This document shows positions 1 to 57,830 of a stretch of DNA of 64,000 nt, piece after piece. The notes below the pieces were generated by a model. It saw only the letters and a program-made list of their open reading frames with translations. It searched no databases and had not been told where the DNA came from. Location: assembly GCF_055900595.2 (NCBI RefSeq), contig NZ_CM148325.1. One strand, 5' to 3'. Each line of letters starts with the position of its first letter. The stretch's first letter is position 1. Both the position numbers and the translations under genes were made by a program.

Positions 1-675
1 GGAACCGTCATGCTGCTTCGTCTCATATTTCACGAGATAACTGGCTCTGTTCCGGGCTTTCTGCAGCGCTTCCACATCACCACGCTTGATCCAGAGAACA
101 GCGGCTTCACCCGGCTTTTTTTCTGAAGCCTTCCTGGTATCAGAACATCCACCCGACAAAGGCGTGTCATCGGAAGAAGGGCGAGCATCAGACGATGCTG
201 GTTTACGGGAAGGCGTCCACCTGGAAAAATGGACCAGGCCATCGCCTTGCCAGGCCTCAAGATGCAGGGCGCTGCACCATGCCTCCAGGATCATCGTCGC
301 CAGCGAAGATGGTTCGCTGAAATCCCCTGGCGAGCACCAGGTATCTTTGTTGAGCAGCAATATCACGTGATAATGTTTCCTGCCTTTTTCCTTGCCAAAC
401 TCCCGACACCAGAAATAACGCAGAGTGGTTGCACGCACACGCTTGTTGGCACGTCGTTTTTTCCGCTGGTAAGCCTGGATTTTGGCTTTCAGGGATTCGA
501 AAAAACGAGAAATCACCGCTGAATCCGGATCGGGATCCATGATGGTGACAGGCATATACTCAGGGAAACGTAAATCCACCCGGATTAACGAGACGGCACG
601 GTGCTGCGACAGGGCACTGTCGAGAAGGCTGTCAAAACGGGATAACCAGTAAGCATTGTGTATTGGTTGATTCAT
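1..675 (-). CDS. Island protein, YagK/YfjJ-like (inovirus Gp2-like family); partial, start codon at 675, continues beyond window start
   Basis: Reverse-strand reading frame open from ATG at 673-675 to position 1 without stop (about 225 codons, MNQPIHNAYWLSRFDSLLDS...); absent from ORF track presumably because no stop lies in the window. Family assignment from memory of CP4-type island proteins, not verified. Confidence 0.55.
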   Translation of the reverse strand, partial: MNQPIHNAYWLSRFDSLLDSALSQHRAVSLIRVDLRFPEYMPVTIMDPDPDSAVISRFFESLKAKIQAYQRKKRRANKRVRATTLRYFWCREFGKEKGRKHYHVILLLNKDTWCSPGDFSEPSSLATMILEAWCSALHLEAWQGDGLVHFSRWTPSRKPASSDARPSSDDTPLSGGCSDTRKASEKKPGEAAVLWIKRGDVEALQKARNRASYLVKYETKQHDGS

Positions 676-2252
676 GATGAGAGATCTCCGTTGATTTGGA
701 TTGACTTCACATCATTAATCACCGCGGTAAAACTTTACGGCATCATGTCATTAAGCAATGCTACAACTCTCTGATTAAGAGTGATTGAAACGGAACAAAC
801 CATCCCGGAACGAAAAGATAATCCTGCACACAGCAGCAAAACACGCAACAACAGCATGAATGGATTTAAAAACGACATGGACGACGAGAAAAGCCTGAAG
901 GGAAAAGGATCCACAGAACATTCGAACAAAACACCAGAAACGCAACCAGAACGCTTCCTGGCAATGCAAATCAACAACAACGCCAAAACCTACAGCTTAA
1001 TCACACAACTCAATCACGAATGCGAATGACACGTTTAAAACCTGTTTACAGATAACGCCGTAACACGATCATCCCCATCACCATCAGAATCGATTTTCTC
1101 ATCCCGAAAATGTTACGTTTCACTACGCACCATAAAAACGGTTAACCATCGATAACGTAAACCTTATCTGAATCAAAAACACCAAAACCGTTCATCACAC
1201 TTTCGCAATGCAAGAAGAAACCTCATGACAAAAAGAATGACCTTACACGGAAAAGAAAACGTCAGGAATCGTTAATGCCTCAATCTGATTGTTATCAAAA
1301 CATCCAGAAAGTCGTTTAACAGAATCGTCGTAAGCACATCGAAAAGAACGTCAGATCACCTCAGGAAAGTTCGGGTTGATTTAGCGTAAAGATACTTTTC
1401 TCAGCTTAACGTCGAAACACAAACCAAAAACCACAAACAACCAAAGCTCAGGAAAGGTTAAACGTCACATCAGTAAAATCGAATAGCAGATTGATTGCTT
1501 AAACAGGAAGGATTGTTTTACAGCAGCATTAAACTGATTTAGTTAACGTAAAATCAGAACTGACAGGTTTACTAACTTGGATGTGTATCAGTTCAAAAAT
1601 GTGTACAGCAATGCGTAATGAAACACATTTAAAGGAGATTAATGGGAAAGTGTGTAAATGCGTAAACAGGCACTAATGAATCACTGGAGGAATACATACA
1701 AAACGACTTAATGAAAACATAAAAGGACCTAATGGAAAAGGTGTATATAATACCATATCCGACATTCTCAACATCTTAAGACATCCATGCAGACTGAATG
1801 TTGGTTTCAGTTTTTCACGGTAAGCATGAATCTTTTCTGTTCAAAAGCAGAGCAGATTTACTCTGGAATTATTTTTCTTACTCCGTATTCTGTACAGCAA
1901 AAACTTGTGCTAACTTTACAGCAAACCATCATAATCAGCGTCTGTAGTCCCATCGCTTTACCCCATGAAAGTGAATCCATATGATGTGAGAGAGATAAGT
2001 CATCGTATCCGGTAAACACTGCTTACTATAACATAAGATCATTCAGTCAGTTTTATCTCTGAACTGACGATTATGGCATGCTCATTTATATGGCTCACAG
2101 AGGAGTGTTATTATCCGTAAGCTTTAATCATCAAATCACATGACCATACCAAACTGGCGCTATATCAGCTCATTTGACGCTCATTCCCTTTAGATTTCTT
2201 TATGTGTTTTTTGTTGATAATTAAAATGTAATATAAATTTAATATTTTCAAA

Positions 2253-3476
2253 TCATAAACACCATTTAAAACCATCATCCTGAACATCATACAACAATAT
2301 ATTTTTACTAAAGCATGAATTGTATACTTCTATTAATTCAGGAAAATTATCAGGATTCACCTTTAAATTCAACTGAATGTTACACTTAATTTCACTCAGC
2401 AGTTCTTCATGCGTGGATTTTATTATCCCTTTATCATAATCTATAAATACACACATGTTTTTCATGAATTCAAACCCTTTTCCTGTATACAGTTTGATGA
2501 ATGCCACAAGAGCAAACATTTCAAGATGCAGCCATAATGCCACGTGAGTTTTTCGCAAAGTATAAAAAATTGAATTCGCCACTTTTTTACTTATTGCTCT
2601 TTTGTACTGTGAGTGCGCCAGATTCAGTAGTGGCAATTCTCTCTCGATAAATGAAAGTGAAAAAGACGGGTAAATTGATGTCGGAAATATTTCAGGTCTT
2701 ATGATATTTTCGATTTCCACCATAAATCTATCCATAGAACGAAAATCATTTTCTTTTTTTATTCTGGTATAGAGACCGCCTTTATTCCTTACTGCGACTT
2801 TTTTTCGTGCTATCCCCCCCAACATTTCCTCTAATTGTTTATTTATCTTCGTATCATTAAATACAACCATTCTTCTTATCATCCTGGGAAGGATGATAAT
2901 ATCAGAGCTTGAATCACTTGAACGGCAATTATTATTGATCCATGCAACTTCAAGTTGAAGTATCGGAACATTAAATTCTCTGGGGTTAATAACTCTCTGA
3001 TATTGTTTTTTGTATGCGTTTTCATTAAGATATTCTCTGCTGTAGAGAAACTTATAGCAATATAATCTGACAATATCCTTTATGTAAGATTTAAATGAGT
3101 CACCTGTAACAGATATATTTTTTCTTCTCAGTAACTCCTGTGTATTGAGCCATTCCCGTGACCGGAGTACTCCATTATGAAGACTTTTTCTTACTTGCTT
3201 TGAATTGCGCAATTGATGTAATATTTTTGCGTCCTCAACAATTCTCTTTCCCGTTTGATTTCTTGCAGCATCTATTACTCTGTCAAATATCTCCCGGTCC
3301 AGACTTTTGTCATATTTACTGATTATACGACAAATATTCCTGACCCGACGGTTCTCTTTATTTCGTTTCCATAACTGATAATGATCATCACATAACCTCA
3401 GGGCATTTGCCTCATCAAATTCTGAAACAGGATTGCTGCATTTTTTATTCCGACAGATACCTTTGTTTTTAGCCAT
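2253..3476 (-). CDS. Hypothetical protein, 407 aa, strongly AT-rich, Lys/Asn/Ile-rich; N-terminal Cys-x4-Cys...Cys-x2-His motif; no family recognised
   Basis: Long uninterrupted ORF in ORF track; spot counts of lines give roughly 22-37% GC versus about 50% in flanking core genes; sits between YfjJ-like and YfjP-like island genes. Confidence 0.75.
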   Translation of the reverse strand: MAKNKGICRNKKCSNPVSEFDEANALRLCDDHYQLWKRNKENRRVRNICRIISKYDKSLDREIFDRVIDAARNQTGKRIVEDAKILHQLRNSKQVRKSLHNGVLRSREWLNTQELLRRKNISVTGDSFKSYIKDIVRLYCYKFLYSREYLNENAYKKQYQRVINPREFNVPILQLEVAWINNNCRSSDSSSDIIILPRMIRRMVVFNDTKINKQLEEMLGGIARKKVAVRNKGGLYTRIKKENDFRSMDRFMVEIENIIRPEIFPTSIYPSFSLSFIERELPLLNLAHSQYKRAISKKVANSIFYTLRKTHVALWLHLEMFALVAFIKLYTGKGFEFMKNMCVFIDYDKGIIKSTHEELLSEIKCNIQLNLKVNPDNFPELIEVYNSCFSKNILLYDVQDDGFKWCL

Positions 3477-3576
3477 ACTCTTCTTCCCGTCAATGGAAAA
3501 ATTTTCACGTCCATATTACCTGACTGAGAGGCCGGATTAATGTGATCCGGTTCAGTGAAATCAACAGGATAACGGT

Positions 3577-4461
3577 ATGTCATTCAGCCATTCTTCCCTC
3601 TCCGCACACGTAAAGTCACATCTGACCTTTCTTCCTGAAGAAATTCGCCAGAAAATCCTTGAACATCTTCGCAGCGTCATTCAGTACGAACCCGTTATTG
3701 GCATTATGGGTAAATCCGGTGCCGGAAAAAGCAGCCTGTGCAATGCCATTTTTCAGTCCCGTGTCTGCGCCACGCATCCGCTGAACGGCTGCACCCGTCA
3801 GGCTCATCGTCTTACCTTTCAGCCCGGTGAACGAAGAATGACGCTGGTCGATCTGCCCGGCACTGGCGAAACACCACAGCATGATCAGGAATACCGGGCA
3901 CTTTACAGTCAGTTACTGCCCGAACTGGATCTGATTATCTGGATCCTGCGGGCTGATGAACGTGCGTATGCTGCCGACATCGCCATGCATCAGTTTTTAC
4001 TGAATGAAGGTGCCGATCCCTCGCGTTTTCTGTTTGTTCTCAGCCATGCCGATCGCATCCACCCGGCTGAAGAATGGAACAACCAGAGCAGCACGCCATC
4101 CCGTCAGCAGGAACTCTCACTGGCGACGGTGACAGCCCGGGTGGCAACCCTGTTCCCTTCATCATTTCCGGTACTCCCCATAGCCGCTCCTGCCGGCTGG
4201 AATCTTCCGGCATTTGTGTCTCTGATGATCCACGCCCTGCCACCACAGGCAACCAGCGCGGTTTATTCGCATATCCGGAATGAAAAGCGCACTGCGCAGG
4301 ATCAGCAACACGCACAGCAGGCTTTTGGTGACGCCATCGGCCAGAGTTTTGACGCTGCCATTGCCCGGTTCAGCTTTCCGGCCTGGATGCTGCAGCTTCT
4401 GCGCAAAGCCCGTGATCGCATTATCCGCCTGCTGATCACACTGTGGGATCGCCTGTTCTGA
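3577..4461 (+). CDS. Island GTPase, YfjP/YkfA/YeeP-like (P-loop GTP-binding protein)
   Basis: 294-aa ORF with Walker A motif GIMGKSGAGKSS; sequence resembles K-12 prophage GTPases YfjP/YkfA. Confidence 0.85.
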   Translation: MSFSHSSLSAHVKSHLTFLPEEIRQKILEHLRSVIQYEPVIGIMGKSGAGKSSLCNAIFQSRVCATHPLNGCTRQAHRLTFQPGERRMTLVDLPGTGETPQHDQEYRALYSQLLPELDLIIWILRADERAYAADIAMHQFLLNEGADPSRFLFVLSHADRIHPAEEWNNQSSTPSRQQELSLATVTARVATLFPSSFPVLPIAAPAGWNLPAFVSLMIHALPPQATSAVYSHIRNEKRTAQDQQHAQQAFGDAIGQSFDAAIARFSFPAWMLQLLRKARDRIIRLLITLWDRLF

Positions 4462-4646
4462 ATGTCCCCGCTTTTTGACCGGCCCCGGCGATAACCAGGA
4501 AACGCATTTCCGGTTGCGTCACCACAATGCTGAAGGGCTTCGGTAAACCCTCATTCATTTCATCCATCAGGCCGCGTCTTCTCCGTGAGACGCGGCTTTT
4601 TCATTGATTACGTCATTCAGTCTTAACCACTGATAAGGAGCAAAGT

Positions 4647-5465
4647 ATGCGATTAGCCAGTCGTTTTGGTTATGCGAACCAGATACGCCGTGACCGTCCG
4701 CTGACCCGTGAAGAGCTGATGCACCATGTGCCCGGGATTTTCGGGGAAGATAAACACACCTCCCGGAGCCGGAACTATACATACATCCCCACCATCACCG
4801 TGCTGGAAAGCCTGCAGCGGGAAGGCTTTCAGCCATTCTTCGCCTGCCAGACCCGCGTACGTGACCCGGGCCGCCGGGGGTATACCAAACACATGCTGCG
4901 TCTGCGCCGTGACGGGGAGATAAACGGACAACATGTCCCTGAAATTATTCTGCTCAACTCTCATGACGGTACCTCCAGCTACCAGATGCTGCCGGGTTAC
5001 TTCAGGTTCGTCTGCCAGAACGGATGCGTCTGCGGTCAGTCTCTGGGGGAAGTGCGTGTTCCGCACCGGGGAAATGTGGTGGACAGAGTCATTGAAGGGG
5101 CTTACGAGGTGGTGGGCGTGTTTGACCGGATAGAGGAGAAGCGTGATGCCATGCAGTCGCTGGTCCTGCCGCCACCGGCACGCCAGGCGCTGGCACAGGC
5201 GGCACTGACTTACCGTTATGGTGACGAACATCAGCCCGTCACCACCGCCGACATTCTGACACCACGACGCCGGGAGGATTACGGTAAGGACCTGTGGAGT
5301 GCTTATCAGACCATCCAGGAGAATATGCTGAAAGGCGGGATTTCCGGTCGCAGTGCAAAAGGAAAACGTATCCATACCCGGGCCATTCACAGCATTGATA
5401 CCGATATAAAACTCAACCGCGCATTGTGGGTGATGGCAGAAACGCTGCTTGAGAGCATGCGCTGA
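4647..5465 (+). CDS. DUF932-family island protein, YfjQ-like
   Basis: 272-aa ORF; position after the GTPase gene and similarity to YfjQ as recalled. Confidence 0.75.
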   Translation: MRLASRFGYANQIRRDRPLTREELMHHVPGIFGEDKHTSRSRNYTYIPTITVLESLQREGFQPFFACQTRVRDPGRRGYTKHMLRLRRDGEINGQHVPEIILLNSHDGTSSYQMLPGYFRFVCQNGCVCGQSLGEVRVPHRGNVVDRVIEGAYEVVGVFDRIEEKRDAMQSLVLPPPARQALAQAALTYRYGDEHQPVTTADILTPRRREDYGKDLWSAYQTIQENMLKGGISGRSAKGKRIHTRAIHSIDTDIKLNRALWVMAETLLESMR

Positions 5466-5546
5466 TGCCGTTTCCCTGAGTGAGGGAATCATTCAGCTTT
5501 CGTTCCTGAAAAACACACATTTATTTGTTATTTAAGGCGTTATCTC

Positions 5547-6026
5547 ATGAAAACCGTTTCTCAGAATACCCCCACAATTTATTCAGCTACAACACCAGAG
5601 AATAATCCGCCTCAGTTGGTTGCCAGCCTCGTCCCTGATGAACAGCGCATCAGCTTCTGGCCGCAGCATTTTGGCCTCATTCCACAGTGGGTGACCCTGG
5701 AGCCCCGTGTCTTCGGCTGGATGGACCGTCTGTGCGAAGACTACTGCGGTGGTATCTGGAATCTGTACACCCTGAACAACGGCGGGGCATTTATGGCCCC
5801 CGAACCGGATGATGATGATGACGAAACATGGGTACTGTTCAATGCCATGAACGGTAACCGCGCTGAAATGAGCCCGGAAGCCGCCGGCATTGCTGCCTGT
5901 CTGATGACGTACAGTCATCACGCCTGCCGTACGGAGTGTTATGCCATGACGGTTCATTATTACCGTCTGCGGGATTACGCCCTGCAGCATCCGGAATGCA
6001 GCGCCATTATGCGCATCATTGACTGA
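5547..6026 (+). CDS. Antirestriction protein, KlcA/ArdB-like (YfjX/YafX family)
   Basis: 159-aa ORF with acidic DDDDDE tract; conserved position preceding RadC-like gene in CP4-type islands. Confidence 0.75.
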   Translation: MKTVSQNTPTIYSATTPENNPPQLVASLVPDEQRISFWPQHFGLIPQWVTLEPRVFGWMDRLCEDYCGGIWNLYTLNNGGAFMAPEPDDDDDETWVLFNAMNGNRAEMSPEAAGIAACLMTYSHHACRTECYAMTVHYYRLRDYALQHPECSAIMRIID

Positions 6027-6041
6027 AAGGGGGCCGGAACA

Positions 6042-6518
6042 ATGCAACAGATTTCCTTTCTGCCCGGAGAAATGACAACCAGAGAGCGCAGCCTCATTCA
6101 GCGGGCCCTGAAAGCCCTGGACCGCCATCTTCATGAACCCGGCGTGGTCTTCACCTCCACGCATGCGGCACGGGAATGGCTGATTCTGAACATGGCGGGA
6201 CTGGAGCGTGAAGAATTCCGGGTGCTGTATCTGAACAACCAGAATCAGCTGATTGCCGGTGAAACCCTCTTCACCGGCACCATCAACCGCACGGAAGTCC
6301 ATCCCCGGGAAGTGATTAAACGCGCCCTGTACCACAATGCCGCTGCCGTGGTGCTGGCACACAATCACCCGTCCGGTGAAGTCACACCCAGTAAGGCAGA
6401 CCGCCTTATTACGGAACGTCTGGTACAGGCGCTGGCCCTGGTGGATATCCGGGTGCCGGACCATCTGATAGTCGGTGGCAGCCAGGTTTTCTCCTTTGCC
6501 GAACATGGTCTGCTTTAA
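6042..6518 (+). CDS. RadC-like JAB/JAMM domain protein (YfjY/YeeS/YkfG family)
   Basis: 158-aa ORF containing JAMM metal-binding motif HNHPSG...D (VVLAHNHPSGEVTPSKADRLITERL). Confidence 0.85.
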   Translation: MQQISFLPGEMTTRERSLIQRALKALDRHLHEPGVVFTSTHAAREWLILNMAGLEREEFRVLYLNNQNQLIAGETLFTGTINRTEVHPREVIKRALYHNAAAVVLAHNHPSGEVTPSKADRLITERLVQALALVDIRVPDHLIVGGSQVFSFAEHGLL

Positions 6519-6580
6519 CCCGTCACAACCACATCACACCTGTTTTCACTTTTATCTTCTGTCTTCAGAGGTATCCCATT

Positions 6581-6802
6581 ATGAAAATCATCACCCGTGG
6601 TGAAGCCATGCGTATTCACCAACAGCATCCTGCATCCCGTCTTTTTCCGTTCTGTACCGGCAAATACCGCTGGCACGGCAGCACTGAAACGTATACCGGT
6701 CGTGAAGTGCAGGATATTCCCGGTGTGCTGGCTGTGTTTGCAGAACGTCGTAAGGACAGTTTTGGCCCGTATGTCCGGCTGATGAGCGTCACCCTGAACT
6801 GA
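6581..6802 (+). CDS. DUF987 protein (YeeT/YpjJ/YkfH family)
   Basis: 73-aa ORF in conserved island position after RadC-like gene. Confidence 0.7.
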   Translation: MKIITRGEAMRIHQQHPASRLFPFCTGKYRWHGSTETYTGREVQDIPGVLAVFAERRKDSFGPYVRLMSVTLN

Positions 6803-6816
6803 GTCAGGGCATTCTG

Positions 6817-7447
6817 ATGAGCAGAATTATCACCATCACAGTGTATACGCTGGATGAACTTTCCTGCCCGGCACGGGAAAAAGCCCGCGACGGGTACCGT
6901 CAGCATCATGCTGACAGCAACTGGTATGAAAACGTGTATGAAGACTTCAGGGAGGTCTGTGGCATTTTCGGAATTGACCTCCGCCAGCGCGTTTTCCGGC
7001 TCAGCAACGGCAGGTTTATGGAGGAGCCGAGCATCTGGTTCAGCGGATTCTGCAGCCAGGGACGGAGCCTGTTTTGAAGGACGCTGGCACTGGCAGTCAG
7101 CAACAACCAGGAGAGTCCGGGAGTATGCCCCGCAGAACCGTGAGCTTCATCGTATCGCGGATGCCCTGCAGGCGGTGCAGAAACGTAACTTCTGGCAACT
7201 GCAGGCTGAAATCCACCACCGGGGACGTTACTGCCATCCGTTATCACTGTTACCCGGAACAGTCCGACTGGTCAGGCTATGACAGCCGATGCGGAAGCCG
7301 CTGTCAGCGAAGCCCTGCGCGACCTGGCCTTCTGGCTGTACCGTCAACTGGAAAACGAGTACGACCAGATGACCTCAGACGCCGCTGTGGATGAGGCCAT
7401 TCTCATCAATGCATACATCTTCACCGAAACCGGTCAGCGCACCGGCT
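6817..7447 (+). pseudogene. Island gene apparently disrupted by frameshifts (about 210 codons spread over three reading frames)
   Basis: Contiguous overlapping ORFs 6817-7077 (frame 1), 6854-7282 (frame 2), 7074-7394 (frame 3) and a frame-1 tail 7279-7447; pattern typical of a frameshifted gene. Identity not recognised. Confidence 0.35.
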
Positions 7448-7498
7448 GACCTGTCATCGTTAAACCATTCTTAACCACTTTTCAGAGAGGATTTTATC

Positions 7499-7867
7499 GT
7501 GTCAGACACACTCTCCGGGATAACTCATCCCGACGACAATCACGACCGCCCCTGGTGGGGGCTTCCCTGCACAGTGAGGCCCTGTTTTGGCGCCCGTCTG
7601 GTGCAGGAGGGTAACCGCCTGCATTACCTTGCCGACCGCGCCGGCATCAGAGGCCGGTTCAGCGATGCGGATGCATACCATCTGGACCAGGCCTTTCCGC
7701 TGCTGATGAAACAACTGGAACTCATGCTCACCAGCGGTGAACTGAATCCCCGCCATCAGCATACCGTCACGCTGTATGCAAAAGGGCTGACCTGCGAAGC
7801 CGACACCCTCGGCAGTTGTGGTTACGTTTATCTGGCTGTTTATCCGACGCCCGAAACGAAAAAGTAA
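7499..7867 (+). CDS. Type IV antitoxin, CbeA/YfjZ/YafW family
   Basis: 122-aa ORF MSDTLSGITHPDDNHDRPWWGLPCTV... closely resembles K-12 CbeA (YeeU)/YfjZ. Confidence 0.85.
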   Translation: MSDTLSGITHPDDNHDRPWWGLPCTVRPCFGARLVQEGNRLHYLADRAGIRGRFSDADAYHLDQAFPLLMKQLELMLTSGELNPRHQHTVTLYAKGLTCEADTLGSCGYVYLAVYPTPETKK

Positions 7868-7957
7868 ACCACCGGAATAACCTTCTGCTCCGGCCAGGTG
7901 TTTTCACCACGCCACTCTCCCCATAATTTAATCTCTCATATCAGGAAAATCTTCAGT

Positions 7958-8368
7958 ATGAAATTATTACCCGACACACATGTACGGGAGGCATCGTGCT
8001 GCCCGTCTCCCGTCACCATCTGGCAGACACTGCTCATCCGTCTGCTGGACCAGCACTATGGCCTCACACTGAATGACACACCGTTCGCTGATGAACGTGT
8101 GATTGAGCAGCATATTGAGGCCGGCATTTCACTGTGCGATGCGGTGAACTTTCTCGTTGAAAAATACGCACTGGTACGTACCGACCAGCCGGGATTCAGC
8201 GCAGGAGCCCCGTCGCAGTTAATCAACAGCATCGATATTCTCCGGGCCCGCCGGGCAACAGGCCTGATGACACGTAATAACTACAGAATGGTAAATAACA
8301 TTACCCTGGGTAGCATCCGGGGGCGAAACGATGAAACTTTCCCTGACGCTGGAAGCCGACAGCATTAA
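7958..8368 (+). CDS. Type IV toxin, CbtA/YpjF/YkfI family (cytoskeleton-inhibiting toxin)
   Basis: ORF from ATG at 7958 (MKLLPD...[60 protein letters not shown]...) matches CbtA-like toxins; immediately downstream of antitoxin. C-terminal extent uncertain. Confidence 0.8.
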
Positions 8369-8753
8369 CGTGCAGGCACTGAACATGGGGCGCATTGTCG
8401 TTGACATTGATGGTGTAAATCTCGCTGAACTGATTAACAAGGTCGCTGAATACGGTTATTCACTCCGCGTGGTGGATGAACGTGACGCTACCGAAACACC
8501 GGCGACTTCTGCCAGCTCTCATCAGTTGCCGGAAGACAATACAGTGATACAGAGCGTGATGCCATTAACCACTGAAACAGCGCTGGATATCCTCATTGCG
8601 TGGCTGCAGGACAATATCGACTGCGGGTCCGGAATTATTTTCGACAACGATGAGGATAAAACGGATTCGGCAGCACTGCTGCCCTGTATTGAACAGGCCA
8701 GGGAGGATATCCGTACCCTGCACCAACTGCAACTTCTGCACCAGAACCGGTGA
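8331..8753 (+). CDS. YeeW-like island protein
   Basis: 140-aa ORF following the toxin gene as in CP4-44/CP4-57 modules; assignment by position and recalled similarity. Confidence 0.55.
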
Positions 8754-8837
8754 ATCTCACTCACCAGACTTCATTCTCCTGACGCCAGCCTGAACAGAGC
8801 TGGCGTTTTCGTTTATAAACAGAAAGGAAACCCCATA

Positions 8838-9623
8838 ATGTCATATATCACAATCCCCCACCCGAACGCGGTCAACGGACATACAGCCGTTATCTGTTCC
8901 ACAAGTATCAGACACATCCTGGCTGTACGAAAGAGTACACTGCTGCAAATCGACACGCTTATCCGGCAACTGACAGAAATCTCAGCACTGACGGAAAGTA
9001 TTGGCGGTAAAGCCGCCCCGGACTGGGCGATGAAACAGAATTTTCGCTGTGGTTGCTGGCTGATGGAGAAACCAGAAACAGCAATGAAAGCCATTACCCG
9101 GAATCTTGACCGCGAAATCTGGCGTAACCTGATGCAGCGTTCCGGGATGCTTTCCTTAATGGATGCACAGGCACGTGATACATGGTACAGGTCACTGGAA
9201 TATGATAATTTTCCGGAAATCAGTGAAGCGAACATTCTGAGCACATTTGAACAACTGCACCAGAATAAGGATGAAGTGTTTGAGCGGGGGGTGATCAACC
9301 TCTTCAAAGGGCTGAGCTGGGATTACAAAACCAACTCACCCTGTAAATTTGGCAGTAAAATTATCGTCAACAATCTGGTGAGGTGGGACCAGTGGGGATT
9401 TCATCTTATCAGTGGAATGCAGGCAGATCGCCTGGCTGACCTGGAAAGAATGTTGCATCTGCTCAGCGGTAAACCGATCCCCGACAACCGGGGAATATCA
9501 CCATTAATCTGGATGACCACATACAGTCCGTTCAGGGTAAAGGACGCTATGAAGATGAGATGTTCATCATTAAATACTTTAAGAAGGGAGCTGCACACAT
9601 CACTTTCAAAAGGCTGGAGCTGA
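8838..9623 (+). CDS. Hypothetical island-terminal protein, 261 aa
   Basis: Uninterrupted ORF with plausible RBS context; last gene before the tRNA-fragment repeat. Family not recognised. Confidence 0.6.
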   Translation: MSYITIPHPNAVNGHTAVICSTSIRHILAVRKSTLLQIDTLIRQLTEISALTESIGGKAAPDWAMKQNFRCGCWLMEKPETAMKAITRNLDREIWRNLMQRSGMLSLMDAQARDTWYRSLEYDNFPEISEANILSTFEQLHQNKDEVFERGVINLFKGLSWDYKTNSPCKFGSKIIVNNLVRWDQWGFHLISGMQADRLADLERMLHLLSGKPIPDNRGISPLIWMTTYSPFRVKDAMKMRCSSLNTLRRELHTSLSKGWS

Positions 9624-9789
9624 TTGACAGAATTAACGATATAATAGCCAGGCACTTTCCTTCTGTGCTCTCAGCCTGACCCCGAGTTTGATTCCCTTTC
9701 GATATCAAAAGGGACTGCGGGTACAAAAGAGGGTACATCTTTCACCAAACCAAACAAAATAAACCAATATCAACATGATAGAAGCATTC

Positions 9790-9811
9790 TTCGATTCCGA
9801 GTCCGGCACCA
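9790..9811 (+). repeat. tRNA-Phe 3'-end fragment (attR-type direct repeat of island integration site)
   Basis: TTCGATTCCGAGTCCGGCACCA matches the 3' end of E. coli tRNA-Phe (TTCGATTCCGAGTCCGGGCACCA) with one G missing; upstream sequence does not continue as tRNA. Confidence 0.7.
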
Positions 9812-9822
9812 AATTCATATAA

Positions 9823-9848
9823 ACGGACCTCCACGGAGGTCCGTTTTT
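9823..9848 (+). terminator. Rho-independent terminator (native pheU terminator)
   Basis: Perfect inverted repeat ACGGACCTCC / GGAGGTCCGT followed by TTTTT. Confidence 0.75.
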
Positions 9849-10442
9849 CGTTTCAGGACGCCATGTGATTTAAGCGTTCTGCCTTCAAATCATTTCTAAC
9901 AATCTCAACCAAATTTTCCCTAATCGCCAGCATGTTACGGGTATACCCCAGCTCTGGGAAATTTATCCCTAAGCTATGAATGACTCTCACGAAATGTCGT
10001 GCGGCTGCGTGATGCAGTTGAAAATCAAATGATGTCATCAAGAGCTTAACGGTATCGTTGCCGATGACATATATAAAGCACAACCTCGGGCAGAACGCCG
10101 ACTGATGAGATTTTCTGAATGAGAACAAAGAGTAATGTCTCAGTTCGTTTGCTCATGCAAAGACTAATAATCCATGAAAATAGTAAGTGCTCTGAGAAAT
10201 TTTCCATGGATTATTTTCTGAACATTTTTCTTTGGCAAAGATGATGAATTTTGATGATAAGGAATATTACTTCTGGTTCTCAGTAAACTCCTTTCGTAAT
10301 ACTATGTAATCAAGAAGTTTATGGCGGGTAAAAATAACGTCTTACATTCACCAACAATATGTAAATAAACCCATCTATAGATGGTAAAAATAGGTCATGG
10401 CAATTATCATTGAACCATTCCCTTTTCGAATGAGTTTCTATT

Positions 10443-11152
10443 ATGCAACAACCTGTAGTTCGCGTTGGCGAATGGCTTGTTACTCCGTCCATAAACCAAA
10501 TTAGCCGCAATGGGCGTCAACTTACCCTTGAGCCGAGATTAATCGATCTTCTGGTTTTCTTTGCTCAACACAGTGGCGAAGTACTTAGCAGGGATGAACT
10601 TATCGATAATGTCTGGAAGAGAAGTATTGTCACCAATCACGTTGTGACGCAGAGTATCTCAGAACTACGTAAGTCATTAAAAGATAATGATGAAGATAGT
10701 CCTGTCTATATCGCTACTGTACCAAAGCGCGGCTATAAATTAATGGTGCCGGTTATCTGGTACAGCGAAGAAGAGGGAGAGGAAATAATGCTATCTTCGC
10801 CTCCCCCTATACCAGAGGCGGTTCCTGACACAGATTCTCCCTCCCAAAGTCTTAACATTCAAAACACCGCAACACCACCTGAACAATCCCCAGTTAAAAG
10901 CAAACGATTCACTACCTTTTGGGTATGGTTTTTTTTCCTGTTGTCGTTAGGTATCTGTGTAGCACTGGTAGCGTTTTCAAGTCTTGATACACGTCTTCCT
11001 ATGAGCAAATCGCGTATTTTGCTCAATCCACGCGATATTGACATTAATATGGTAAATAAAAGTTGTAACAGCTGGAGTTCCCCGTATCAGCTCTCTTACG
11101 CGATAGGCGTGGGTGATTTGGTGGCGACATCACTTAACACCTTCTCCACCTT
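10443..11152 (+). pseudogene. cadC: cadC 5' fragment (DNA-binding domain and transmembrane segment) truncated by IS1 insertion
   Basis: ORF MQQPVVRVGEWLVTPSINQISRNGRQLTLEPRLIDLL... equals CadC N-terminus; reading frame runs into IS1 and ends 6 codons later (VMLPTY-stop at 11174). Confidence 0.9.
11144..11152. repeat. IS1 target-site duplication, left copy (CTCCACCTT)
   Basis: Identical 9-bp sequence immediately flanks both IS1 ends. Confidence 0.85.
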
Positions 11153-11207
11153 GGTGATGCTGCCAACTTACTGATTTAGTGTATGATGGTGTTTTTGAGG
11201 TGCTCCA

Positions 11208-11483
11208 GTGGCTTCTGTTTCTATCAGCTGTCCCTCCTGTTCAGCTACTGACGGGGTGGTGCGTAACGGCAAAAGCACCGCCGGACATCAGCGCTATCTC
11301 TGCTCTCACTGCCGTAAAACATGGCAACTGCAGTTCACTTACACCGCTTCTCAACCCGGTACGCACCAGAAAATCATTGATATGGCCATGAATGGCGTTG
11401 GATGCCGGGCAACTGCCCGCATTATGGGCGTTGGCCTCAACACGATTTTACGTCACTTAAAAAACTCAGGCCGCAGTCGGTAA
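11208..11483 (+). CDS. insA: IS1 InsA (transposition repressor / N-terminal part of InsAB' transposase)
   Basis: 91-aa [94 protein letters not shown]. Confidence 0.95.
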
Positions 11484-11905
11484 CCTCGCGCATACAGCCG
11501 GGCAGTGACGTCATCGTCTGTGCGGAAATGGACGAACAGTGGGGCTATGTCGGGGCTAAATCGCGCCAGCGCTGGCTGTTTTACGCGTATGACAGGCTCC
11601 GGAAGACGGTTGTTGCGCACGTATTCGGTGAACGCACTATGGCGACGCTGGGGCGTCTTATGAGCCTGCTGTCACCCTTTGACGTGGTGATATGGATGAC
11701 GGATGGCTGGCCGCTGTATGAATCCCGCCTGAAGGGAAAGCTGCACGTAATCAGCAAGCGATATACGCAGCGAATTGAGCGGCATAACCTGAATCTGAGG
11801 CAGCACCTGGCACGGCTGGGACGGAAGTCGCTGTCGTTCTCAAAATCGGTGGAGCTGCATGACAAAGTCATCGGGCATTATCTGAACATAAAACACTATC
11901 AATAA
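11402..11905 (+). CDS. insB: IS1 InsB (C-terminal part of InsAB' transposase)
   Basis: 167-aa ORF matching IS1 InsB (…[33 protein letters not shown]…). Confidence 0.95.
11457..11465 (+). promoter_or_regulatory. IS1 programmed -1 ribosomal frameshift site (A6C motif TTAAAAAAC)
   Basis: Sequence TTAAAAAAC at the insA/insB overlap, the known site producing InsAB' transposase. Confidence 0.75.
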
Positions 11906-11920
11906 GTTGGAGTCATTACC

Positions 11921-11929
11921 CTCCACCTT
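11921..11929. repeat. IS1 target-site duplication, right copy (CTCCACCTT)
   Basis: Identical to 11144-11152. Confidence 0.85.
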
Positions 11930-12758
11930 TATGGTGCATGACAAAATCAACTACAACATTGATGAACCGAGCAGTTCCGGTAAAACATTATCTATTGCGT
12001 TTGTTAATCAGCGCCAATACCGTGCTCAACAATGCTTTATGTCGGTAAAATTGGTAGACAATGCAGATGGTTCAACCATGCTGGATAAACGTTATGTCAT
12101 CACTAACGGTAATCAGCTGGCGATTCAAAATGATTTACTGGAGAGTTTATCAAAAGCGTTAAACCAACCGTGGCCACAACGAATGCAGGAGATGCTCCAG
12201 CAAATTTTGCCTCATCGTGGTGCGTTATTAACTAATTTTTATCAGGCACATGATTATTTACTGCATGGCGATGATAAATCATTGAACCGTGCCAGTGAAT
12301 TACTAGGTGAGATTGTTCAATCATCCCCCGAATTTACCTACGCGAGAGCAGAAAAAGCATTAGTTGATATCGTGCGCCATTCTCAACATCCTTTAGATGA
12401 AAAACAATTAGCAGCACTGAATACAGAAATAGATAACATTGTTACACTGCCGGAATTGAACAACCTGTCCATTATATATCAAATAAAAGCGGTCAGTGCT
12501 CTGGTAAAAGGTAAAACAGATGAGTCTTACCAGGCGATAAATACTGGCATTGATCTTGAAATGTCCTGGCTAAATTATGTGTTGCTTGGCAAGGTTTATG
12601 AAATGAAGGGGATGAACCGGGAAGCAGCTGATGCATATCTCACCGCCTTTAATTTACGCCCAGGGGCAAACACCCTTTACTGGATTGAAAATGGTATATT
12701 CCAGACTTCTGTTCCTTATGTTGTACCTTATCTCGACAAATTTCTCGCCTCAGAATAA
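11921..12758 (+). pseudogene. cadC: cadC 3' fragment (periplasmic sensor domain) separated from its 5' part by IS1
   Basis: Frame reading STFMVHDKINYNIDEPSSSGKTLSIAFVNQRQYRAQQCF... to stop at 12758 matches the CadC periplasmic domain. Confidence 0.9.
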
Positions 12759-13122
12759 GTGACTCCCGGGTTGACTCATGCTCGGGAATATTTGTTGTTG
12801 ATTTTTTGTATGTTATTGTTGGTATAATATGTTGCGGCAATTTATTTGCCGCATAATTTTTATCACATAAATTTAACCATGGAATATTCTGCAATCTATT
12901 GTAAACATTGAATGTTTATCTTTTCATGATATCAACTTGCGATCCTGATGTGTTAATAAAAAACCTCAAGTTCTCACTTACAGAAACTTTTGTGTTATTT
13001 CACCTAATCTTTAGGATTAATCTTTTTTTTTGAGTAATCTTGTCGCCAGTTTGGTCTGGTCAGTAAATAGTTACGCATCATGACCCGGACTCCAAATTCA
13101 AAAATGAAATTAGGAGAAGAGC
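12759..13122 (+). promoter_or_regulatory. cadBA promoter region (Pcad; CadC-binding region inferred)
   Basis: AT-rich 364-bp intergenic region upstream of cadB; position-based inference from the known cad operon organisation, individual sites not mapped. Confidence 0.45.
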
Positions 13123-27598: not shown

Positions 27599-28249
27599 AT
27601 GACCCGCACACTCAAGCCGTTAATTCTTAACACCGGCGCACTGGCGCTAACGTTAATCCTGATTTATACCGGCATTTCGGCCCATGACAAACTCACCTGG
27701 CTGATGGAAGTGACGCCGGTGATTATTGTCGTGCCGCTACTGCTTGCCACCGCCAGACGTTACCCGTTAACGCCGCTGCTCTATACGCTCATTTTCTTTC
27801 ATGCCATCATCCTGATGGTCGGCGGACAATACACCTACGCGAAAGTCCCCGTTGGTTTTGACGTGCAAGAATGGCTGGGATTGAGCCGTAATCCGTATGA
27901 CAAGCTGGGGCATTTTTTCCAGGGGCTGGTGCCTGCACTGGTGGCGCGAGAAATTCTCGTTCGCGGGATGTACGTGCGCGGACGTAAAATGGTGGCGTTT
28001 CTGGTCTGCTGCGTGGCGCTGGCGATAAGCGCGATGTATGAATTAATCGAGTGGTGGGCAGCGCTGGCAATGGGTCAGGGAGCGGATGATTTTCTCGGTA
28101 CCCAAGGCGACCAATGGGACACACAATCCGATATGTTCTGCGCGCTACTTGGTGCATTAACGACGGTGATGTTCCTCGCTCGCTTTCATTACCGCCAGCT
28201 ACGGCGCTTTGGCTTAATCACCAGAGCGCCGGAAGCGATTACCTCTTAA
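27599..28249 (+). CDS. yjdF: Inner membrane protein YjdF
   Basis: 216-aa membrane ORF MTRTLKPLILNTGALALTLILIYTGISAHDKL...; its stop codon overlaps the melA stop on the other strand. Confidence 0.8.
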   Translation: MTRTLKPLILNTGALALTLILIYTGISAHDKLTWLMEVTPVIIVVPLLLATARRYPLTPLLYTLIFFHAIILMVGGQYTYAKVPVGFDVQEWLGLSRNPYDKLGHFFQGLVPALVAREILVRGMYVRGRKMVAFLVCCVALAISAMYELIEWWAALAMGQGADDFLGTQGDQWDTQSDMFCALLGALTTVMFLARFHYRQLRRFGLITRAPEAITS

Positions 28250-29601
28250 CGGTGCAACCAGCCTGGCAGCCAGTCGCCGTGGGCGGCAATCAGGTCGTCA
28301 ACAAGAGCATATATTTCGTCAATGCCCAGCACGGCGGCAGTATGCGGGTCCATCATCGCGGCGTGGTAAACACGGTCGCGATTTTCCGTAAGAATGGCTT
28401 CGGTCAGCAGCGTCTGTACGTTGATGTTGGTTTGCATCAGGGCGGCCAGATGCGAAGGTAGCGTACCGACTTTGGTCGGCTGAATGCCATTAGCATCAAC
28501 TAAACAGGCCACTTCCACGCAACATCCTTGTGGCAGGTTATCAATCAAACCATCGTTACGGACGTTGCCGTAAATCACACTCGGCTCGCCAGTCCAGATA
28601 GCGTTCATGATTGTGCTGGCATATTCCCGTGACGGTTTAATATCAATCCGGGAGGCGTTCTTATACTCCTCCAGCTCTTTATGCCAGTTTGCCAATTGTT
28701 CGACGCAGCGTTTCGGGTACTCATCCAGCGGCACTTTATAACGCTCAATCAAATCCTCACGACCTGGCTTAATAAACCACGGCGTGTACTCAGCAAAATG
28801 TTCTGACGATTCCGTGACGAAGTAGCCCAGCTTTTTGAACATTTCATAGCGCACAATATTCTGGCAGCGAGTATTGCCATGAATATTCGGCTTCGGTGCC
28901 TGCCCTGCTTCATAAGCCGCCAGCAGTTCCGGGTAGAGATTCACGTAACTGCCGTCGGCGGTTTTGCGCTCCAGTTCCAGGTAAAACGCCATATGGTTGA
29001 TACCTGCGCAACGGTAACGCAGCGTAGCCGGGTCGATATTGAGGTCACGCGCCAGCTCTTCCGCCGTTCCCTGCACCGAATGGCACAGCCCTACCTGTTT
29101 GATATGCGGATAACGGGCATACATCGCCCAGGTATTCATCGCCATTGGGTTAACATAGTTGAGCATGGTGGCATCGGGGCAGATTTCCGTCATGTCCTCG
29201 CAAATTTGCCACAGGTGAGGAATGGTACGTAGCGCGCGCATAATACCGCCCGGCCCCAGCGTATCGGCAATGGTTTGTTCCAGACCGTGGCGCTTACAGA
29301 CCTCAAAATCAGTCACCGTGCAAGGTTCATAACCGCCAATCTGAAATGCCACTACGACAAAATCGGCATCCTGTAAGGCTTCTTTCTGTTGGGTGTGGCA
29401 GGTGATTTTGCCACTGGCCCCTGCTGAATCCATCAGCTTGCGCACCACAATATGCGACTCTTCCAGGCGGGTGGGATCAATGTCCATCAGGGCAATATGC
29501 GCCGTTTTCAGCGCCTCGCGATGGAACACATCACCAAGAATATTTTTAACGAAAATCGTCGAACCAGCGCCGATAAATGTAATTTTGGGTGCAGACATCA
29601 T
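28246..29601 (-). CDS. melA: Alpha-galactosidase (melibiase)
   Basis: 451-aa ORF MMSAPKITFIGAGSTIFVKNILGDVFHREALKTAHIALMDIDPTRLEE... ending ...GDWLPGWLHR. Confidence 0.9.
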   Translation of the reverse strand: MMSAPKITFIGAGSTIFVKNILGDVFHREALKTAHIALMDIDPTRLEESHIVVRKLMDSAGASGKITCHTQQKEALQDADFVVVAFQIGGYEPCTVTDFEVCKRHGLEQTIADTLGPGGIMRALRTIPHLWQICEDMTEICPDATMLNYVNPMAMNTWAMYARYPHIKQVGLCHSVQGTAEELARDLNIDPATLRYRCAGINHMAFYLELERKTADGSYVNLYPELLAAYEAGQAPKPNIHGNTRCQNIVRYEMFKKLGYFVTESSEHFAEYTPWFIKPGREDLIERYKVPLDEYPKRCVEQLANWHKELEEYKNASRIDIKPSREYASTIMNAIWTGEPSVIYGNVRNDGLIDNLPQGCCVEVACLVDANGIQPTKVGTLPSHLAALMQTNINVQTLLTEAILTENRDRVYHAAMMDPHTAAVLGIDEIYALVDDLIAAHGDWLPGWLHR

Positions 29602-56069: not shown

Positions 56070-56828
56070 ATGAGCCTGACCCTCACACTTACTGGCACTG
56101 GCGGCGCACAGGGTGTTCCCGCATGGGGCTGTGAGTGCGCGGCCTGCGCCAGAGCGCGGCGCTCACCGCAGTATCGCCGCCAGCCATGCAGCGGCGTCGT
56201 GAAGTTTAACGACGCGATCACCCTGATCGACGCCGGGCTGCACGGTCTCGCCGATCGCTGGTCGCCCGGATCGTTCCAGCAGTTTTTGCTGACACACTAC
56301 CATATGGATCACGTGCAGGGGCTGTTTCCGCTGCGCTGGGGCGTGGGCGATTCGATCCCGGTCTACGGCCCGCCGGATGAACAGGGCTGCGACGATCTGT
56401 TTAAACATCCGGGCCTGCTTGATTTCAGCCACACGGTGGAGCCATTTGTGATGTTTGATTTGCAGGGATTACAGGTCACGCCGCTGCCGCTCAACCATTC
56501 GAAACTCACTTTCGGCTATCTACTGGAAACGGCACATAGCCGGGTGGCGTGGCTGTCTGACACCGCAGGCCTGCCGGAAAAAACGGTGAAATTTTTACGC
56601 AATAATCAGCCGCAGGTGATGGTGATTGATTGCAGTCACCCACCGCGCGCGAATTCGCCACGCAATCACTGTGATTTAAACACCGTGCTGGCGCTGAATG
56701 AAGTTATCCGCTCGCCGCGCGTGGTTCTGACACATATCAGCCATCAGCTTGATGTGTGGCTGATGGAGAACGTACTGCCGTCAGGGTTTGAGGCGGGGTT
56801 TGATGGGATGGAGATTGGGGTGGAGTGA
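56070..56828 (+). CDS. phnP: Phosphodiesterase PhnP (metallo-beta-lactamase fold)
   Basis: 252-aa ORF with HxHxDH motif ([10 protein letters not shown]). Confidence 0.85.
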
Positions 56829-56862
56829 TGGGTGAGGGGCGATGCCTGCTCTAAACTCAACA

Positions 56863-57192
56863 TCACCGCCCATACTCATCTTCCATTCTCCGCTCTTCAT
56901 CTTCTAGCTGCCGACGCTCCTGATCCAGCTGGCGCTGGCGATCGTCCAGCTGCCTGCGGCGATCTTCAAACTGGCGGCGGCGATCGTCATATTGTCTGCG
57001 CCGATCGTCGTTCACTTCACGCTGCCAGCCGTCGTCGCGCGAATCTTCATAGTCTCGCCCACGGTCAGGGTTATAAGCATCGTTAATCGCCTGCTGAATA
57101 TTACCAATGGTGTCGTCGATAATATCGGCCTGGGCCGGAACGGTGGACAGCGTGAGCAGGGTGAATAAAAGAAATAGCGGAAAACGTTTCAT
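56863..57192 (-). CDS. yjdP: Small secreted Arg/Asp-rich protein YjdP
   Basis: 109-aa ORF with signal peptide and RRQ/DDR repeats. Confidence 0.75.
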   Translation of the reverse strand: MKRFPLFLLFTLLTLSTVPAQADIIDDTIGNIQQAINDAYNPDRGRDYEDSRDDGWQREVNDDRRRQYDDRRRQFEDRRRQLDDRQRQLDQERRQLEDEERRMEDEYGR

Positions 57193-57260
57193 TAGCCAAC
57201 CTCAAAAAGAAACTCTATCCACATTAGTCATTACTCATCCATGCAAGTAGTGGATGAATC

Positions 57261-57578
57261 TCAATTTTTCCGCTGCTCTATTGCCGTAATCGCCTCCACA
57301 CGTTGTTGATGACGACCGCCTTCGTACTGCGCGCCCAGCCACGCATCCACAATCATTTTTGCCAGTTCGAGGCCAACCACTCGTGAACCAAAAGCCAGTG
57401 CAACTTCACTGGCGTAATGCGGATAATCAGTGCGCTCTGACGACCTGGTTTCTTTATCAATCCCCTCACTCATTGACCATGAATAAAAGGCTGGCACAGC
57501 AACGCAGAATCCTGCGGTGCCAGCGACATGACCGCCCATTGCTCCGGTACGTTTTTTAATAAGAAACACCGGTTGCAT
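57261..57578 (-). pseudogene. rpiB: rpiB remnant (ribose-5-phosphate isomerase B with internal deletion)
   Basis: 105-aa ORF contains SSERTDYPHYAS and C-terminal FGSRVVGLELAKMIVDAWLGAQYEGGRHQQRVEAITAIEQR matching RpiB, but lacks about 50 central residues. Confidence 0.7.
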
Positions 57579-57830
57579 TGATTAATTGTGCTCAGTATTT
57601 GCCGAAGTACAATATATATAATAAATATATAAAACACCTCATATTATTTACAGAGATAATAAATTCGCATACTTTTCCCTCTTCAGCACAAATGCCTAAT
57701 AAAATGGCTCGTTCCGCTCACACTTCCACTTATTAAAATCGCAATTTCCCAATTATGATAACGCCAGCTTTAAATGACGTATTTTGCATGGATTACATAT
57801 TTACGACACAAATGATAAATGGAGATTTAT

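Follow-up and report, generated by a model that had tools for sequence, protein, structure and literature searches.

[quoted passage not shown] Low pH promotes dimerization of its periplasmic domain, and two DNA-binding domains then occupy the cadBA promoter (PMC5430869, PMC6320335); the cytoplasmic DNA-binding domains alone are monomeric and bind weakly, with affinities in the tens of µM (PMC5430869). Published residue lists (PMC5936718, PMC6320335) place the acidic pH-sensing patch at D198/D200/E461/E468/D471 and the contact with LysP at R265/R268, and wild-type CadC is present at only ∼3–5 molecules per cell (PMC5936718). Reports on engineered sensor-less forms, which comprise the DNA-binding domain with or without the transmembrane (TM) helix, disagree. 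According to a review from the Jung laboratory, CadC stripped of its input domain fails to induce cadBA, regaining activity only when dimerization is supplied artificially, and proteolysis is not required (PMC5936718), whereas Chen et al. (2024) propose that activation needs reduction of the C208–C272 disulfide by DsbC together with cleavage by DegP/DegQ, the membrane-bound fragment CadC1-184 being the proposed active product (PMC11484849).

The disruption of cadC by insertion sequences is already known and forms a well-described class, encountered both in EIEC/Shigella pathoadaptation and in acid-evolution experiments. Pathoadaptive silencing of this kind concerns invasive pathovars (pINV, ipaH), for which cadaverine is anti-virulent. 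In EIEC strain 6.81, IS1 is likewise the agent and the activator gene, not the enzyme gene, is disrupted (Casalino et al. 2003, as cited in PMC4156367 and PMC5723341); this strain also carries a frameshift in cadB. The same sources describe an EIEC cad region collinear with that of K-12 and, in strains HN280, 4608, and 53638, defects confined to cadC with cadBA intact, in which no cadaverine is made until wild-type cadC is supplied. Evolution of K-12 at low pH yields insertion sequences in cadC that abolish CadA function (Harden 2015 and He 2017, cited in PMC12956098), and such selections give transposon and IS lesions throughout the gene as well as an L381* nonsense allele, alongside deletion or loss of cadA (PMC12956098). 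Selections for constitutive CadC, on the other hand, return amino acid substitutions in the sensor domain alone (T236A, M448V, and Y453H; A220T, M322T, and others), all of them missense alleles, and never truncations (PMC10763504, PMC8209735).

The locus described here lies in a 64-kb stretch of E. coli chromosome (hereafter the window) and carries an inactivating lesion in cadC, as does cad silencing of the Shigella/EIEC type. In cadC, which starts at 10443, nucleotide 710 is followed by a complete IS1 of 768 bp (11153–11920, + strand) that breaks the gene and whose transposase genes are co-directional with it. A perfect 9-bp target-site duplication, CTCCACCTT, stands on either flank of the element (11144–11152 and 11921–11929), and in silico removal of IS1 and one duplicate restores an unbroken 512-codon cadC. 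The element is IS1A-like, being 99–100% identical to E. coli copies that carry the annotation IS1A, and has the length and ends of an IS1-family member, its terminal inverted repeats matching at 18 of 23 positions. The insA gene (11208–11483, + strand; Pfam Zn_ribbon_InsA and HTH_Tnp_IS1, E values of 1e-21 and 5e-31) and the insB′ frame (11402–11905, + strand; DDE_Tnp_IS1, 2e-78) are joined by the A6C −1 frameshift motif of the family, TTAAAAAAC, at 11457. The duplication is also of the size characteristic of IS1, and 9-bp duplications accompany the other cadC::IS1 alleles, at nt 595 (Evo1), 635 (LP50-1), and 877 (cS100a). The copy in cadC is the only IS1 in the 64 kb. The insertion structure can be read directly from these features; we regard it as confirmed and not as the product of chance. 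We note that a 5-bp hairpin spans the right junction (11908–11925), where the end of IS1 (TGGAG) happens to be complementary to the duplicated target (CTCCA). A terminator scan flagged it on both strands; it has no proper T-tract and is probably meaningless.

The 5′ part of the gene remains an open reading frame of 243 codons (10443–11174, + strand) that encodes CadC residues 1–236, native sequence ending at 11152, followed by LVMLPTY and a stop. The junction codon TTG, split between cadC (TT) and IS1 (G), gives Leu in place of native Phe237, and VMLPTY follows before a TGA at IS1 nucleotides 20–22. A sequence-only reading of this DNA had described the product as ending in a six-residue IS1-encoded tail; six residues are indeed wholly IS1-encoded, and the junction Leu237 brings the non-native tail to seven. 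Within the left end of IS1 (11153–11179), all three entering frames stop inside 27 nt (TGA at nt 3–5, TGA at nt 20–22, and TAG at nt 25–27). Any gene disrupted by IS1 in the same orientation is therefore predicted to gain at most eight fully IS1-encoded residues, which makes the short tail a generic by-product of IS1 insertion rather than a feature of this allele. The LP50-1 insertion, at nt 635 and in the same phase, should end in the same VMLPTY tail.

The same reading had held that this fragment keeps the winged-helix DNA-binding domain and the TM segment, and our domain searches bear it out. [quoted passage not shown] The disordered linker is kept, with PPPIP at 120–124, and is followed by one hydrophobic segment, spanned by 19-residue windows at ∼155–183, the best of which (161–179) has a Kyte–Doolittle score of 2.46, in keeping with a single TM helix. 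R184 and C208 are both present. The fragment further retains 49 native residues (188–236) of the roughly 325-residue periplasmic sensor, C208 among them, which the sequence-only reading had left unmentioned. Here Pfam CadC_C1 matches at 191–238 over only the first ∼47 of its 134 profile positions (2–48), and the solved structures of the periplasmic domain (3LY7/8/9/A) can be aligned to residues 188–238 alone, a span of 51 residues. Some 275 of the ∼325 sensor residues are thus missing from the polypeptide, and the codons for C272, the LysP-contact residues R265/R268, and E461, E468, and D471 all lie beyond the break. No single polypeptide carries the complete periplasmic pH-sensing and dimerization domain (about 188–512), with its C208–C272 pair and acidic patch. 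The NCBIfam equivalog for CadC (NF007540) scores 340.1 bits, below its 400-bit cutoff, over positions 1–246 of 516. The last native residue before IS1, encoded by codon 236 (11150–11152), is Thr236, a dimer-interface residue whose replacement by Ala is reported to confer constitutive activity (PMC10763504). Its place at the break is a positional coincidence and not functional evidence.

Taken with the literature, these features point to a loss-of-function, null allele of cadC with silent cadBA, a reading to which we assign a probability of roughly 80%. A recent and simple IS1 transposition into codon 237 would have inactivated the activator as follows. The unchanged cadC promoter would still drive the short frame, and its product would be an inner-membrane protein whose DNA-binding domain faces the cytoplasm and whose periplasmic portion is a stub of 56 residues that is unable to fold. 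Lacking the periplasmic dimerization domain, it would fail to pair two DNA-binding domains at the cadBA promoter, so that cadBA would remain off and the strain would be expected to test negative for lysine decarboxylase. We favor this explanation because sensor-less CadC is reported inactive in the Jung-laboratory review (PMC5936718) and because the EIEC strains, low-pH evolution, and the genetics of constitutive mutants all agree with it. The decarboxylase-negative phenotype and its restoration by wild-type cadC are predictions, made for a strain whose cadBA is intact. By extrapolation from EIEC (PMC4156367), the strain should also be cadaverine-free, with raised putrescine and an adi system freed of CadC interference. 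The stub, its periplasmic tail misfolded, would be expected to be scarcer than wild-type CadC. Published work (PMC5936718, PMC4156367, PMC12956098) thereby largely answers the contention that the regulatory outcome is not self-evident, although the 2024 proteolytic model (PMC11484849) leaves legitimate doubt.

In another reading, the stub, while inactive on cadBA, is not inert and may touch LysP through its TM helix, bind AT-rich sites such as Cad1 as a monomer, or interfere with adi. Both the TM helix and the DNA-binding domain are intact, contacts between LysP and CadC are intramembrane as well as periplasmic (PMC6320335), and CadC is known to interfere with the adi system (PMC4156367), whose adiA, adiY, and adiC genes are intact 17 kb downstream. 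We nevertheless think this unlikely, given that even wild-type CadC amounts to only a few molecules per cell (PMC5936718), that the polyproline stretch is kept, that the misfolded periplasmic tail should lower stability further, and that the affinity of the monomeric DNA-binding domain is weak (PMC5430869). If the stub did act in this way, the phenotype would differ subtly from that of a clean cadC deletion.

Also improbable, in our judgment, but a rival to be kept in view, is that the stub is a signal-blind, constitutive activator, clipped by DegP/DegQ at R184 to give CadC1-184 and a low level of cadBA expression independent of pH, lysine, and cadaverine. Since R184 is kept and the C208–C272 disulfide cannot form in a product with C208 but without C272, the 2024 model would allow the stub to be trimmed to the "active" form. 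In that work, cleavage after R184 by DegP/DegQ is required for activation and R184Q abolishes complementation; CadC1-184 is membrane-bound and binds the promoter ∼4-fold more tightly than full-length CadC (KD of 7.7 versus 28.6 µM); and the C208S and C272S variants are cleaved or degraded and give stimulus-independent activation in a lysP background (PMC11484849). In vivo activation by CadC1-184 is, however, not part of that study, and the Jung-laboratory review regards proteolysis as unneeded and CadC lacking its input domain as inactive (PMC5936718). The engineered forms share the winged-helix, linker, and TM modules with the stub but end at or near the membrane, whereas the stub runs on into the periplasm for 49 native residues and the 7 foreign ones. 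The genetic record weighs in the same direction: gain-of-function selections give missense changes only, although truncations would offer mutation a much larger target; loss of cadA is selected together with truncations of, and insertions in, cadC (PMC12956098); and EIEC cadC mutants make zero cadaverine (PMC4156367). Were the stub constitutive after all, natural truncation alleles would discriminate between the dimerization and proteolysis models of CadC signaling. Truncated alleles that keep the DNA-binding domain, the TM helix, and R184 in any case offer a cheap test between these two models, to which the natural allele adds nothing unique because such constructs are trivial to engineer.

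The suggestion that a sensor-less CadC might act as a dominant-negative regulator would apply only if the genome had a second, intact cadC, and the 64-kb window holds none. Placement of IS1 in cadC through misassembly of a repeat is extremely unlikely even though IS1 is multicopy (E. coli genomes have a median of 10 matches each), because an independent short-read assembly (Logan, SRR27886137) carries the same left junction, 100% identical across 1,346 bp, and the perfect 9-bp target duplication and the clean restoration of the frame on excision tell against it as well.

The null reading extends to the 3′ part of cadC, which is a dead remnant without a promoter, a good start, or an export signal. 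Its frame is open from a TTG at 11907 to 12758 (+ strand), with native codons from about 11930, and covers CadC_C1 profile positions 45–134. The scan of the + strand gave no promoter-like site ahead of the fragment, in line with the sequence-only reading; the sole + strand match within IS1 is at 11160–11187, which we take to be where the element's own left-end promoter would be expected, and the whole region has 8 promoter-like sites compared with 6.6 ± 2.6 in shuffled sequences, i.e., no excess. The further proposal that an ATG within the right end of IS1 could serve as a start does not hold up, as the only in-frame ATG inside the element (11859) is closed after 8 codons by a TGA at 11883. 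The first usable in-frame ATG is native Met238 at 11931, outside IS1, and the GGAG 18 nt upstream of it is too far away for a good ribosome-binding site. An outward promoter or a start for this fragment was sought by promoter scan and by inspection of starts, and neither gave a candidate. Reinitiation is conceivable at TTG 11907, a codon within IS1 that is separated from the insB stop (TAA, 11903–11905) by one nucleotide, and would give a sensor fragment located in the cytoplasm. The product would lack any hydrophobic or signal segment (maximum 19-residue Kyte–Doolittle score of 0.91) and could not reach the periplasm.

The remainder of the cad locus is in order, running cadC, cadB, cadA, dtpC, lysU. 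With IS1 removed, the 6.6 kb that begins 343 nt ahead of cadC and runs through cadA was compared with the corresponding span of E400634 (Kenya, stool), whose cadC is intact, and showed two differences: a synonymous change at A335 (12224) and an extra T at 12857. The upstream region of cadC, with its putative promoter and 5′ leader (10100–10442, + strand), is identical in the two, and nothing in it would be expected to prevent transcription of the truncated frame. The cadC–cadB intergenic region (12759–13122, + strand) holds two terminator-like hairpins (12764–12787 and 12833–12853) and the cadBA promoter region; the extra T falls within the T-run after the second hairpin. A compensating change in the cadBA promoter was considered and rejected, this single 1-nt T-run difference being the only one there. 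[quoted passage not shown] In this respect, the strain resembles the EIEC strains with cadC-only defects and differs from 6.81, with its frameshifted cadB. The closest genomes, E400634 among them (99.9% over 23 kb), come from stool and dog isolates and have annotated intact cadC, cadB, and cadA. Because these relatives have an intact cadC and because cadBA and its promoter region here match theirs, with no decay of cadBA, we conclude that the insertion is recent.

The allele is also confined to this strain and a single SRA run, SRR27886137. A 44-nt query able to seed only across the junction found the same cadC–IS1 join in 0 of 5,426 complete E. coli genomes, and an exact 36-nt scan found it in none of the GTDB species-representative genomes. 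A longer, 80-nt junction query returned matches, but these were only two-piece joins of cadC and IS1 at other sites. Among the 5,426 genomes, 171 are without any cadC and a further 54 have <80% of it. The 90% protein cluster that contains the truncated CadC has 962 members, and those listed are partial or truncated N-terminal fragments of CadC, including fragments of 126–153 aa on dozens of contigs.

Seven IS1 sites in cadC could be located, at nt 595, 635, 710, 877, 1051, 1176, and about 1203–1224. In the evolved strain Evo1, a laboratory lineage, IS1 stands at nt 595, 115 nt upstream of the present site, in the same orientation and with a 9-bp duplication. The apparent orientation of all cadC IS1 copies with cadC is an artifact, as our search joins pieces on one strand only. 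We also asked whether the DNA-binding domain and TM helix are kept under selection, since all seven sites are downstream of the TM-coding part, for which the uniform expectation is about 0.04. We set this reading aside because the sites are few and in part clonal, with inspection covering a subset of the 56 genomes that have matches of at least 80% coverage, and because the 90% cluster includes the 126–153 aa N-terminal fragments as well. The insertion site at nt 710 is new and without special consequence.

Three of the sites bound deletions. In the MIN12 O89m:H10, G5, and S1-IVC-02-A types (loci L006, 744–2951; L007, 744–2800; and L008, 744–2799, respectively), an IS1 oriented as in the present allele interrupts the stretch of cadC that encodes the sensor, so that an N-terminal CadC pseudogene remains. 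On its right, the element adjoins yjdI or dcuS in these types, and cadBA, dtpC, and lysU are gone, whereas here both flanks are intact; the deletions from nt 1051 and about 1203–1224 reach yjdI, and that from nt 1176 reaches dcuS. The genes deleted in these three lineages are cadBA, dtpC, lysU, ghoST, and yjdJ, and several of the lineages are multigenome clones. These losses have the appearance of adjacent deletions mediated by IS1. In the three lineages, cadBA was not maintained by selection behind cadC::IS1 stubs of this kind, and the allele in the window corresponds to the predeletion, precursor state because both its flanks and its target duplication are intact. It can therefore be viewed as the first step of a route completed elsewhere, in which IS1 enters cadC and the adjacent cadBA is later deleted. 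The allele predicts a lysine-decarboxylase-negative, cadaverine-free strain, a diagnostic trait that makes E. coli resemble Shigella. Such a change is recognized as pathoadaptive or acid-adaptive. The allele has little import beyond annotation.

Several observations concern the rest of the window. The melB gene is absent, the 3′ end of yjdF (27599–28249, + strand) overlapping that of melA (28246–29601, − strand) by 4 nt, with both genes full length by NCBIfam; because the same arrangement is annotated in E400634, we regard this as a trait of the lineage, and it predicts the absence of a melibiose permease. The gap between phnP and yjcS is only about 1 kb (56828–57819), and in E400634 it holds yjdP and a 105-aa remnant of RpiB. 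In K-12, this region contains the rpiB-als (allose) operon, which appears to be missing in this lineage. Upstream of cadC, positions 1–10100 form a mobile island. No tRNA gene occurs in 1–12000, which places the pheU end of the island outside the window. The island carries GTPase, DUF932, DUF4942, and antitoxin-like genes, with a 407-aa open reading frame at 2253–3476 on the − strand. E400634, the nearest core-genome relative, differs at this location, where it has ISEc10 and an EAL-domain pseudogene, and the best match to the island, at only 99.0%, is a chicken isolate.
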